Assembly: GCA_000004695.1 (NCBI GenBank)
Contig: CM000152.2
Coordinates: 5,376,001 to 5,440,000, forward strand
DNA: 64,000 bases
Source: Dictyostelium discoideum
Taxonomy: Eukaryota
Direction of reading: 5' to 3'
Part shown: positions 28,711 through 32,229 of the stretch, in pieces
How positions within the stretch are numbered: position 1 is the stretch's first letter
Layout of the letters: each line of letters opens with the position of its first letter
Position numbers and translations under genes: made by a program
The notes under the pieces: model-generated
Told to the model about the DNA's origin: nothing
The model's database searches: none
What the model saw: the letters and a program-made list of their open reading frames with translations, nothing else

Positions 28711-29786
28711 GCCTTTTTTTTTCTTTTTCTTTAAAACATGTATGCAGTTAAAAATTTATAGAAATAAATAAAACTTGTGGATGGCTTTTTTTTATTTTTT
28801 TTTTTTTTATTTTTTTTTTTTTTAAGTTATTCCAAATTTTTAAAGGGGAAAAAAAAAAAAAAAAAAAAAAAAATAAATAAATTAAAAATTTTTGATTTTT
28901 TCCCAAAATTAAAAGATTTCTTAGTGTTTTTAAAAATATCCAAACAATTAAATTTTTGATTAATTTGTGAATTTCTCAAAAATTAATTTTATTTATTTTT
29001 ATTTATTTTTTATCTTGTTTGGGGTTTCATAAAAAAAAAAAAAAATAAAACAAAAAAAAAAAAAAAAAAAAAAATAAAAATAAAAATAAAAATAAAAAAA
29101 AAAAAAAAAATAAATATAAAAAAAAAATAACAAATAAATAAAAACAAATATCATACCTTAAAATTAATTTTTAATCATAAAGAATCAAAATATTACCAGT
29201 GTAACTATATTATTTTTTAACGCCACAAATCTCACAATTAATTTTCAAATAATTTTTTTTTTTTTTTTGTTTTTTTTTTTTTTTTTTTTTTGTTTTTTTT
29301 TTTCAGAAAGTGACATTCGGAATGACAAAAAAAAGCGTCACTTTTATTTTACATAATTTTATTATAAGACCGAAAACAAAATAATAATATAACCATTGCA
29401 TTTAATATAACCATTATTACCATTATCATATGGATATAGACTATAAAATATAACCACCCGTTACCTTTAATATATAACCTCATTAATCATTTTTAAGGTA
29501 ATTAAACAAAGATCTTTAGAATTTTATAATAATTCTTAAATACGTCATAAAAAATGAAATAATCTATTTTTAAAATATAAAATGATATTATGGTTAGATA
29601 GTTATAAAACATTTTTCAAAATAAAAAATAAATAAAAAAAAAAAAACTAAACATTTTTTTTTTTAAAAAAACTATTTAAACATTGTTTTAAAAAATCATT
29701 TTAAATATTAATATTCATAAATCAAAAAAAACAAACAAAACAAAACAAAACAAACCAAAAAAAAAAAAAAAAACCAAAACAAAAAA

Positions 29787-31437
29787 ATGAAGATTTTAAT
29801 AACTTTATTATTAATATCATTTTTTATTAATTTTATTAAATCAGAATCAAAAATTTTAAAAAATTACGTTGAAAAAAAAGATAGTCATTATAAATGGAGT
29901 TTAAATGAAACATATGAAACAAATTTTAATTCAAAAATTTATATTCTTGAATTAACTTCTCAACAATGGATGAAGGATCATAGTGATAATAGTATTTGGA
30001 AACATTGGTTAACTATTTGTGTACCAAATGATTATTTGAATAAAAATAATAATAATGTTGGTCATATGCATATTACAGATGGTATAAATCAAAATTGGGC
30101 AACACCAACATTACAATCTCTAAATAAATTTAGTATGGATATTTGCAACCAAACATCAGCAATCACTTCAACTCTATATCAAGTCCCAAATCAATTCATT
30201 ACATTTGAAAATGACGGTATCCCAAGACAAGAAGATGACATAGTTGCATACACTTGGCGTAAGTATATAGATACTCAAGATTCAAATTGGGTTAGTTTAT
30301 TACCACAAACCAAAGCTGCTACCTCTGCAATGACTGCAATTCAAGAATTTGGAAAACAGAAATCATTCTACACGATTGAAAAATTCGTTGTTTCAGGTGC
30401 AAGTAAAAGAGGTTGGACCACTTATGGTATCGCAATGGTTGGTGATAAAAGATTAGCCGCTGCTATTCCAATGGTAATTGGTGTACCAAATTTAGTAAAA
30501 GGTATTAAAGAACAGTTCACCAGTTATGGCAATTGGTCATGGGCTCTTGATTCTTACCAAAATCAAGGTATTCCATCATTTTTCGATACAAAATATTTCA
30601 AAGTTGTCACAGATATTGTTGATCCTCTAAATTATTTAGATGTTATGAAAAGTATACCAAAATTTATTATTCTCACAGTTCATGATGAATTCTTTTTACC
30701 GTAAGTTTTTTTTAAATATATATTTTTTTATTATTATTATTAAAATAACTTTAAGTTATTAATACCATTTTTTTTTTTTTTTTTTTTTTTTTTTCAAAAG
30801 TGATTCAACTAAATACTTTTTTAATCAAATTAAAGGTGAAAAAAGATTAGGTATTTATCAAACTAATCATGGAGTTTCAAATTTTCAAGGTGTTTCAACT
30901 GAAGTTTCGAAATATTTTAAATTAATATCAAATAATCAAGTACGTCCTGAATTATCATGGAATATCGTTTACTCAAGTGATAACAATTCTGCTACAATTA
31001 ATATGAAAGTTGTTAAAGGTGGTACACCAAGTAAAGTAGTTGCATATTCAGTGGATACATTATCAAAAACCAAAAGAGATTTTAGAATGTTTACCTGCTT
31101 CTCTGATACTTGTTATCAAAATTACACAGGATTATGGAAAACTTATCCAATCGATTTAACAAATGATAATTCTTATTCATTCAGTTTATCAAGACCAGCT
31201 AATGGTGGATGGACTGCATTTTATTTTGAAGTAGAATTTGAAAATGCCAATGGTGATAATATCGCTCATATCAATACTGAATTGGCAATCGTACCAAATC
31301 AATATCCATTCTCACCATGTACTAAAGAAATTTGTGCTTCAGGCGTACCAGAATGGGTTCCTAATTCTTCAAGTATTTTATCAATCAACTCTATTTTAAT
31401 TTTATTAATTTCATTATTTAAATTTTTACTATTTTAA
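29787..31437 (+). CDS. Secreted PhoPQ-activated pathogenicity-related protein family member (Dictyostelium AprA-like), ~516 aa; exons 29787..30700 and 30801..31437 (100-nt intron GTAAGT..CAAAAG, phase 2)
   Basis: Signal peptide MKILITLLLISFFINFIKS. Esterase-like GxSxG context VVSGASKRGWTTYGIAMVG. The canonical GTAAGT donor immediately follows ...DEFFLP, and exon 2 re-enters the frame of ORF 31003..31437, ending in a hydrophobic tail (possible GPI signal). The family assignment is from memory of the PqaA/AprA family and was not checked by alignment. Confidence 0.55.
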
Positions 31438-31534
31438 AATTTTAAAATAATAATAATAGTAATAATAATAACAATAAAATAAAAATCAATTTTATTTTTT
31501 ATAAACAAATACAGTGTATCTTTTTTTCATTCAT

Positions 31535-31581
<47 letters not shown>

Positions 31582-31719
31582 TATATTTTTTTTTTTTTTA
31601 TATATTTATTTATTTAATACAATATCCGGGAATTTCCTAAAAATTTATTAAAACAATTGTTGATAAACCCCAAATGCTGAAACATTTTCAATAATTGATT
31701 GTTCTAAAAAAAATAAAAA

Positions 31720-32060
31720 AATAATAAATAAAAAACAAGTACCTTAGTATTTTGAATATTAAATAATCAAATAATTGCTAGTGTAATTATATTATTTTAT
31801 AATCCAATAAATCTCGCCAATAGCTTTGTCTTTTTTTTTGGTATTTTGAAGTAGAATTTGAAAATGCTAATGGTGATAATATCGCTCATATCAATACCGA
31901 ATTGGCAATCGTACCCAATCAAAATCCATTCACACCATGTACTAAAGAAATTTGTGCTTCAGGCGTACCAGAATGGATTCATAATTCTTTAAGTATTTTA
32001 TCAATTTATTCTATTTTAATTTTATTAATTTCATTATTTAAATTTTTACTATTTTAAAAT
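31720..32060 (+). pseudogene. Internally deleted duplicate of the preceding locus: the upstream element (31720-31830, similar to 29140-29235) fused to the last ~75 codons plus 3' flank (31836-32060, similar to 31215-31440)
   Basis: 31836-32060 is about 93% identical to 31215-31440 (GGTATTTTGAAGTAGAATTTGAAAATGC[T/C]AATGGTGATAATATCGCTCATATCAATAC...). 31745-31820 aligns with 29160-29232 (...attRcYagtgtaaYtatattatttt..aaYSccaMaaatctcRcMaa). Homology continues after the stop (32090-32140 versus 31495-31530). Confidence 0.5.
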
Positions 32061-32229
32061 TTTAACACTAATAATAAATAAAAATCGATTTTATTATTTT
32101 TTATAAACAAAGACAGTATATCTTTTTATTTATTTATTTATATTTGATATTGGTGATCCAAAAAAAAAAAAAACAATTTAAAGCAATCACAAAAAAAAAA
32201 AAAAAAAAAGTATGAAACTGATTGTTGTG

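Follow-up and report, generated by a model that had tools for sequence, protein, structure and literature searches.

Unprocessed (duplicated) pseudogene fragments lie next to their parent gene in the same orientation, carry non-transcribed upstream DNA and 3' flank along with coding sequence, lack the start codon and most of the coding sequence, and collect substitutions faster than the parent. A relic downstream of an AprA-like gene of Dictyostelium discoideum AX4, located in the 64,000-nucleotide stretch analysed here (the window; chromosome 3, contig CM000152.2, positions 5,376,001 to 5,440,000), has all of these features, but differs in that only about 440 bp are left, its strict tandem boundary is not demonstrable, and three strain lineages present three decay states of one copy. 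Like tandem paralogues under gene conversion, the relic is more similar to its parent in coding than in flanking sequence. It shares with processed pseudogenes (retrocopies) the appearance of a promoter-less fragment keeping the 3' end of the CDS; however, it also carries parental sequence lying about 550 bp 5' of the ATG and flank past the likely poly(A) signal, and in the assembly L004 the counterpart at the same site bears a promoter. Identity as a retrocopy was rejected on the basis of this non-transcribed upstream DNA, the position of the relic adjoining its parent and the absence of a terminal poly(A) tail. Relative to the AprA (PF10142) family, the parent protein matches end to end whereas the relic covers only the C-terminal region that follows the domain.

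An AprA-family gene and its partial second copy

The parent gene (copy 1) lies on the forward strand, as do all features with a strand given below, and comprises exon 1 (29787-30700), a 100-nt intron (30701-30800, GTAAGT...AG, splice sites read directly) and exon 2 including the stop codon (30801-31437). The 3' flank that belongs to the duplicated material (31438-31548) has an AATAAA at 31473, which is 36 nt past the normal stop and upstream of the relic, and enters a (TTTA)n microsatellite. The spliced translation of 516 amino acids corresponds by exact look-up to the AX4 protein Q54SZ3 / XP_640362.1 and matches PF10142 (PhoPQ_related) across the entire profile (positions 1-367/367, E = 2.4e-134, 448 bits against a gathering cut-off of 20.3), indicative of membership in the PhoPQ_related / AprA family. 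The protein is 39% identical to D. discoideum AprA (P0017) and is an AprA paralogue, not AprA. We also rejected its identification as the multilamellar-body PhoPQ protein, which is a different paralogue (Q86JB6/DDB_G0276897), and a full-text literature search for Q54SZ3 gave no match.

As a previous sequence-only reading of this DNA had proposed, the 3' part of the gene and its flank recur downstream (31222-31548 at 31842-32145), although the homology begins at 31222 and not at 31215 where that reading had placed it. The match is ungapped between 31222-31445 and 31842-32065 (213/224 identical) and goes on with indels across the 3' flank to 31548/32145. Its coding part, which we term the relic (31842-32057, 71 codons plus stop), is identical at 205 of 216 positions (95%) to the last 216 bases of exon 2 (31222-31437), and is followed by the flank copy (32058-32145), which compared with copy 1 has lost 14 nt and 7 nt in two deletions, has gained 3 nt in one insertion, and ends in a short (TTTA)n run. 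The relic reading frame is open from 31824 to a stop codon at 32055-32057; the C-terminal peptide quoted in the sequence-only reading is correct, and we found no in-frame ATG from 31824 to 32057, in agreement with its claim that a start codon is lacking. The relic represents residues 445-516 only, C-terminal to the Pfam domain, and is thus unable to encode a family member; the exact product of a 51-aa ORF was absent from the protein collection searched. Codon differences from the parent comprise six nonsynonymous and four synonymous changes, and polarised changes number six in the relic against one in the functional copy, all of these counts being small. With no usable start or promoter and a substitution pattern that appears relaxed on these small counts, the relic has the properties of a pseudogene that is most likely drifting without constraint and presumably lacks function.

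The second part of the repeat is an upstream element that recurs in the same order, again as previously claimed: 29120-29260 aligns to 31706-31839. Identity is about 74% for the stretch 29120/29153-29245 against 31706/31739-31827, and in the core (29165-29245 vs 31747-31827) 60 of 81 positions are identical. The local score is 55, whereas 1,080 alignments to other real sequence from the window reached 38 at most, AT-rich chunks had a mean of 23.5 (sd 4.8) and 500 shuffles did not exceed 28. In copy 1 the element (29120-29245, secure core 29153-29245, aligning to 31706-31827) forms the left end of the duplicated segment, is located about 550 bp 5' of the ATG and has orthologues 5' of the gene in L001, L004 and L005. 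In copy 2 (31727-31841, core 31739-31827) it ends in a T9-GG junction, is orthologous to L004 7962-8052, and constitutes the left end of roughly 455 bp present in AX4 and absent from L001. Between strains the element is conserved no better than its neighbouring DNA, and it is therefore probably just the part that survived, with nothing special about it. No tRNA and no Rfam family at gathering score was identified in the element. We also rejected a minus-strand exon: AAG followed by GTA is found at the left edge of both copies, but stops occur in all three frames just before, and the unremarkable between-strain conservation further undercuts this reading. A resemblance of GCCACAA / CCAATAA in the element to the upstream motif of Dictyostelium ncRNAs was set aside: the match is imperfect, and what lies downstream is a T-tract, not an RNA gene.

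A self dot-plot of 28700-32400 was enriched at no offsets other than 620, 602 and 599, which represent the 3' part, and 2582, which represents the upstream part; both matches are therefore collinear and share one orientation, rather than amounting to a lone 3' microhomology. The internal loss of ~2 kb from the second copy noted earlier is borne out: in AX4 about 1.98 kb (29246-31221) is restricted to copy 1, spanning the T-tract and promoter, exon 1, the intron and the greater part of exon 2, with no counterpart between 31827 and 31842. The two copies are separated by a spacer of (TTTA)n and unique sequence (31549-31726) that aligns to L001 and L004. A second copy of this 178-bp spacer was not detectable after copy 2, the comparison of 31612-31730 with 32140-32260 scoring no better than 64-194 of 829 controls; three collinear blocks seen by eye were considered as a diverged spacer copy and rejected, their score not exceeding controls. 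Since the spacer is not detectably repeated after copy 2, the arrangement is near-tandem or has an eroded boundary, and the data do not establish a strict head-to-tail unit. Attempts to extend the homology past 29120 on the 5' side and past 31548/32145 on the 3' side yielded only low-complexity A/T and (TTTA)n matches. Within the 64-kb window there are no further copies of the fragment or the upstream element, and no transposon association (for example with tRNA-targeted TRE elements) was found, the window having no tRNA gene and no Rfam match. Collinear blocks in the same orientation, next to the parent and beyond chance, are indicative of local duplication, and the inclusion of the parent's non-transcribed flanking DNA (upstream element, 3' flank and, in L004, promoter) is indicative of copying at the DNA level.

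The orthologous site in related assemblies

We compared the locus, whose intergenic site runs from the AprA-like stop to a MYND gene, with L005 (independent, AX4-like), L004 and L001 (both divergent and D. discoideum-labelled), D. citrinum and D. firmibasis, using a filtered search in place of a first unfiltered BLAST that was swamped by low-complexity hits. Over 31150-32450, L005 has the same structure as AX4 with one base different, and this reproduction in an independent assembly rules out an artefact of assembly. In L004 the site contains an upstream element orthologous to the second element of AX4, then a promoter copy of 270-280 bp homologous to 29413-29773 (score 105 vs a maximum of 67 in 452 controls), and no coding sequence. 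AX4 and L001 differ by a single indel of about 455 bp (31727-32181) corresponding exactly to the upstream element, C-terminal fragment and flank copy, and nothing of the second copy is kept at the L001 site. The spacers of D. citrinum and D. firmibasis (260-304 bp) have no second copy. Across the six genomes we found no intact second copy, and the body of the coding sequence (29774-31221) is present in no remnant; other decay states of the copy do occur at the orthologous site in relatives. The strain comparison suggested by the sequence-only reading with copy-number variation in mind thus reveals differing copy states (element plus promoter in L004, none in L001), but the event is old and no recent copy-number variant, having taken place before AX4 diverged from L001/L004.

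The five copies of the upstream element group by position and not by strain: identity is 85-97% among those located upstream of the gene and 79% between the two downstream ones, but 66-69% when an upstream copy is compared with a downstream one. Paralogue divergence is about three to four times orthologue divergence for the upstream element (JC distance 0.29-0.32 vs 0.08-0.10), the promoter (0.21 vs 0.057) and the flank (0.130 vs 0.035-0.047); the flank of the relic is equally far (0.130) from those of AX4, L001 and L004. The coding piece has a paralogue distance of 0.053 vs 0.048-0.063 between orthologues, and the relic is nearer here to the gene of AX4 itself (0.053) than to the genes of L004 and L001 (0.083 and 0.099). 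Two polarised sites join the relic with AX4's gene, and two put it outside all genes, the relic having the ancestral state where the AX4, L001 and L004 genes share a derived one. The contrast of 93% and 70-75% identity between the parts of the repeat, to which the sequence-only reading had drawn attention, does not reflect one uniform age: the upstream element, promoter and flank are old, and because the coding piece alone of the relic parts looks young, the data point to its homogenisation with copy 1 through gene conversion, a case built on few sites and on a rate ratio that assumes similar rates across lineages.

Origin and fate of the second copy

We regard the second copy as probably a pseudogene relic: the entire AprA-like locus would have been duplicated long ago, locally and in the same orientation, and the copy then lost piecemeal through lineage-specific deletion. 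The duplication would have taken place in an ancestor shared by D. discoideum AX4 and the L001/L004 lineage. A segment of about 2.4 kb (window 29120-31548), extending from the upstream region through the promoter and the two exons into the 3' flank, would have been copied to a position about 180 bp downstream of the original. While coding copies coexisted they may have exchanged sequence by gene conversion, which we propose as the reason that the coding piece of the AX4 relic is so similar to the parent while its non-coding parts are far more diverged; after conversion the relic would have drifted unconstrained. The deletion in AX4 would have removed about 1.98 kb, beginning at the T-tract that follows the upstream element and reaching to codon 445 of 516, whereas L004 would have lost the coding sequence and 3' flank of its second copy and kept the upstream element and promoter, and L001 would have lost the whole of it. 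The differing remnants in AX4 and L004, and their absence from L001, imply that a second copy was already present when these strains diverged and that each lineage deleted it in its own way. They support the duplication followed by deletion envisaged in the sequence-only reading, though not a strict tandem unit, as no second copy of the spacer was detectable. A once-complete second gene is a matter of parsimony and not of observation, since the coding body is in none of the remnants examined, and the absence in L001 roughly matches the copy limits, which a retained ancestral empty allele fits as well as a secondary deletion.

The missing coding body, together with an arrangement that is not strictly head-to-tail, would also agree with a one-step complex rearrangement (MMBIR/FoSTeS-type template switching) in which only a few separate stretches from nearby were copied into the downstream spacer, without a complete second gene ever having existed; the AX4 junction between element and C-terminal piece, a T-run plus GG between T-rich contexts, is compatible with microhomology. 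We nevertheless consider such an origin unlikely. The site in L004 contains different pieces (element and promoter), yet its element is orthologous and its left junction is the same, so that template switching would require either that complex events struck one spot twice independently or that an odd ancestral patch lacked the coding body only, and the upstream element, promoter and flank are of the same age, as for one contiguous copy. An old partial duplication of element and promoter, as in L004, with a later AX4-specific insertion of the C-terminal piece and flank replacing the promoter copy, seems very improbable: it would account for a coding piece as young as the strain split by JC distance and for two derived sites common to the two AX4 copies only, but not for an adjoining flank copy that is old and equidistant from all copy 1 flanks, nor for the two sites that are ancestral in the relic and derived in the AX4, L001 and L004 genes, and the second rearrangement would have to land exactly at the earlier copy. 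As the genome is 22% GC and low-complexity matches are plentiful, chance similarity in AT-rich DNA deserves consideration, as does an artefact of the reference assembly; both are refuted, with next to no probability left to them, by scores far above the real-sequence controls, the orthologous remnants in L004 and the identical structure in L005.

A different fate for the relic is predicted by an automated gene model of an AX4-like assembly, ACTFIT_011712, which splices it on as a terminal exon through a hypothetical 479-nt GT-AG intron (31373-31851), and we found that the translation of 29787-30700, 30801-31372 and 31852-32057 equals the predicted 563-aa product (P0123) exactly. Co-option of the relic as an alternative 3' terminal exon in the AX4 lineage (splice from 31372 to 31852) would be consistent with this annotation, with a GT...AG pair in the right phase and with a relic frame that is still open through the original stop, yet we hold it to be highly unlikely, and the corresponding 563-aa isoform, in which a cysteine-containing C-terminal module would be repeated and the hydrophobic tail would be a variant one, to be just as doubtful. 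The curated AX4 product has 516 aa, the intron would be 479 nt long against 100 nt for the real intron and has a weak GTATTT donor, the AATAAA 36 nt past the normal stop is 5' of the relic, and relic substitutions are mostly nonsynonymous, with a 6:1 excess over the live copy. Furthermore, only the AX4 lineage has the donor G at 31373, where L001, L004, D. citrinum and D. firmibasis have A. There is accordingly only a slim prospect that an A-to-G change at 31373 made a GT donor and allowed the relic of a dead paralogue to be recruited as an alternative terminal exon with a different membrane-anchoring tail; if true, this recruitment would constitute exon birth from a decaying tandem duplicate.

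For the preferred reading of a decayed duplicate, the immediate consequence is an annotation hazard, since the relic is joined to the live gene in at least one automated model (ACTFIT_011712, 563 aa), and it could also mislead those who map reads or design primers near the 3' end of the parent gene. The relic is an ordinary pseudogene remnant and bears on no open biological question. It does provide a clean, datable example of the death of a duplicated gene, in which one ancestral copy is found in three deletion states in close relatives, with signs of gene conversion in a coding part that stayed similar as its flanks drifted.

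The AprA-like gene and its downstream relic

The AprA-like gene of D. discoideum AX4, in a window of 21.6% GC, comprises two plus-strand exons (29787-30700 and 30801-31437) separated by a 100-nt intron (GTAAGT...AG), and its 516-aa spliced translation is an exact match to XP_640362.1 / Q54SZ3, named 'PhoPQ-activated pathogenicity-related protein [D. discoideum AX4]' in the database. Q54SZ3 aligns over the full length of Pfam PF10142 (E = 2.4e-134) and shares 39% identity with AprA (protein P0017), making it a paralogue rather than AprA itself, so that the label AprA-like is fair; it is not the multilamellar-body PhoPQ protein, which is Q86JB6. 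The single intron (30701-30800) was lost or gained among close species: the D. firmibasis orthologue (L003, 6001-7548) is one unbroken 1,548-nt reading frame translating directly to 515 aa, whereas gene spans in AX4, D. citrinum (L002) and two further loci (L001, L004) exceed their coding lengths by about 100-118 nt, fitting a single intron.

Downstream of this gene lies a relic that the sequence-only reading had attributed to tandem duplication followed by an internal ~2-kb deletion in the second copy. The 3' repeat (31222-31445 versus 31842-32065, ungapped, 213 of 224 positions identical) is clear-cut and runs on past the coding part into the 3' flank, to 31548/32145, with three indels. As low-complexity matches are ubiquitous in this genome, the upstream repeat (29120-29260 versus 31706-31839; core 60/81 identical) was tested against controls. 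Its alignment score of 55 compares with a maximum of 38 in 1,080 comparisons to real sequence from elsewhere in the window, both strands included, a mean of 23.5 (sd 4.8) for AT-rich chunks and a maximum of 28 for 500 shuffles. A self dot-plot of 28700-32400 is enriched only at offsets 620/602/599 and 2582, indicating that both matches are direct and collinear and that ~1.98 kb (29246-31221) is gone from the second copy. The C-terminal peptide quoted in that reading was correct and the relic does lack a start codon, its frame running open between 31824 and the stop codon (32055-32057) and containing no in-frame ATG. No additional copies of the upstream element or the 3' block occur elsewhere in the 64-kb window. 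An independent AX4-like assembly (L005, GCA_054883475.1) is 99.3% identical to AX4 over 28700-32500 and differs across 31150-32450 by a single base (32112), reproducing the structure and excluding an assembly artefact.

A (TTTA)n microsatellite following the gene's 3' flank (31529-31596; L001 7755-7870; L004 7750-7830) forms the right-hand boundary of the duplicated segment, and the second copy also ends in a short (TTTA)n (32128-32140). Its length varies by strain, L001 being at least 24 nt longer than AX4.

Different remnants of one second copy

Five loci found via relatives of the AprA-like protein were compared, all with the gene order helicase (-), AprA-like gene (+) and MYND zinc-finger gene (-). 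Two of these, L001 (GCA_054859355.1) and L004 (GCA_054859385.1), come from assemblies labelled D. discoideum and are mutual closest relatives, diverging from AX4 by ~5% in protein and 9-10% in DNA (95% protein and ~90-91% DNA identity over 28700-32500). This is far above the divergence usual for natural D. discoideum isolates, and the two assemblies may stem from a lineage that is cryptic or has been mislabelled. Models of the MYND gene disagree between assemblies: minus-strand ORFs 32423-32725 and 32801-33244, the first encoding an acidic tail of 100 aa and the second a MYND zinc-finger part of 147 aa, form a single spliced gene of 241-247 aa in the annotation of L001, L004 and L005, and two genes in D. 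citrinum.

In D. citrinum and D. firmibasis the spacer after the AprA-like gene is just 260-304 bp, with one copy of the C-terminal segment each. L001 is alignable with AX4 on either side of one indel, where ~455 bp in AX4 (31727-32181) face ~21 unrelated bases; the extra AX4 sequence consists precisely of the upstream-like element, C-terminal fragment and flank copy, plus 36 more bases. L004 carries at this site an upstream-like element (7962-8052) clearly orthologous to the second element of AX4, followed not by a C-terminal fragment but by ~270-280 bp homologous to the promoter region (29413-29773; match score 105, against a maximum of 67, mean of 34 and sd of 12.5 for 452 control chunks), directly after which the downstream sequence common to the strains begins. 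A single second copy has thus left different parts in AX4 and L004 and none in L001, in support of the proposed duplication and subsequent deletion.

The 36 bases that separate the flank copy from sequence found in all strains (32146-32181; GATATTGGTGATCC-A14-CAATTTAA) may, over a short stretch, be loosely homologous to the 21-nt filler of L001 (7980-8000) and to CGTGATAC in L004 (8320-8335); if so, the L001 gap would coincide almost exactly with the limits of the second copy.

Since the L004 copy runs into the promoter, the upstream element is the left end of the duplicated segment, surviving in both lineages. It matches no tRNA or Rfam family, a minus-strand exon is rejected by stops in all frames ahead of a conserved AAGGTA, and its conservation between strains does not exceed that of neighbouring DNA; nothing suggests an independent function. 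The stretch 29246-29412, absent from the second copy of L004, holds an inverted repeat (GTGAC...GTCAC, then TTTT; 29311-29342) that is relatively GC-rich for the surrounding intergenic DNA and is also present 5' of the gene in L004.

Age of the duplication and probable gene conversion

The five upstream-element copies cluster by position rather than by strain, with identities of 85-97% among those 5' of the gene, 79% between the two downstream copies (AX4, L004) and 66-69% for any upstream-downstream pair, which places the duplication before AX4 separated from L001/L004. Jukes-Cantor distances per segment between paralogues and between orthologues are 0.29-0.32 and 0.08-0.10 for the element, 0.21 and 0.057 for the promoter (L004 copies), and 0.130 and 0.035-0.047 for the 3' flank, the relic flank being equidistant (0.130) from those of AX4, L001 and L004. 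These three non-coding segments concur in making the duplication some three to four times as old as the split between strains, refining the original model, as does the differing decay of the relic by lineage.

The coding piece is the exception (paralogue 0.053, orthologue 0.048-0.063), the relic being closer to the AX4 gene (0.053) than to those of L004 (0.083) or L001 (0.099). Constraint is ruled out as the cause because it would lower both distances equally. The simplest reading, over few sites, is that gene conversion between the two coding copies probably acted on the coding part of the relic in the AX4 lineage, which would account for the contrast between 93% identity at the 3' end and 70-75% upstream in the sequence-only reading. 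Polarised with D. citrinum and D. firmibasis as outgroups, derived sites 31344 and 31373 are common to the two AX4 copies only, while at 31248 and 31389 the relic has the ancestral base and the AX4, L001 and L004 genes share the derived one, an order consistent with a conversion tract in the middle.

None of the genomes examined contains the body of a second coding sequence, and parsimony would favour a second gene that was once complete. The main rival is template switching in one step, with a full copy never made. This is disfavoured by the left junction and orthologous element that AX4 and L004 have in common, alongside different inner pieces, and by the similar dates of element, promoter and flank. 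No second copy of the spacer 31549-31726 was detectable, so a strict head-to-tail unit is not supported. The L001 empty site, roughly matching the copy limits, might reflect either secondary deletion or retention of an ancestral allele.

Decay and annotation of the relic

The relic lacks a promoter as well as a start codon, has accumulated six specific polarised changes against one in the live copy, and differs from the live gene at 10 codons, six nonsynonymously. At the AX4 junction the upstream element ends in ...GTC-T9-GG and the C-terminal piece begins with TATTTTGAAG; the left breakpoint in the first copy is the onset of a long T-tract (from 29250) and the right one is preceded by CATTT, making T-run microhomology possible.

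The automated annotation of L005 includes a 563-aa product, ACTFIT_011712 (P0123), corresponding exactly to 29787-30700, 30801-31372 and 31852-32057, in which a predicted 479-nt GT-AG intron begins within the last exon and ends with the AG at 31850-31851, so that ~46 C-terminal residues are repeated. This model is probably a prediction artefact, given that the AX4 reference product has 516 aa, the donor (GTATTT) is weak, the predicted intron has almost five times the length of the gene's authentic intron, an AATAAA occurs 36 nt beyond the normal stop, and the donor G (31373) reads A in L001, L004, D. citrinum and D. firmibasis. The relic is another example of a very familiar type of feature, and its value is mainly as a tidy evolutionary illustration and a caveat for annotation.
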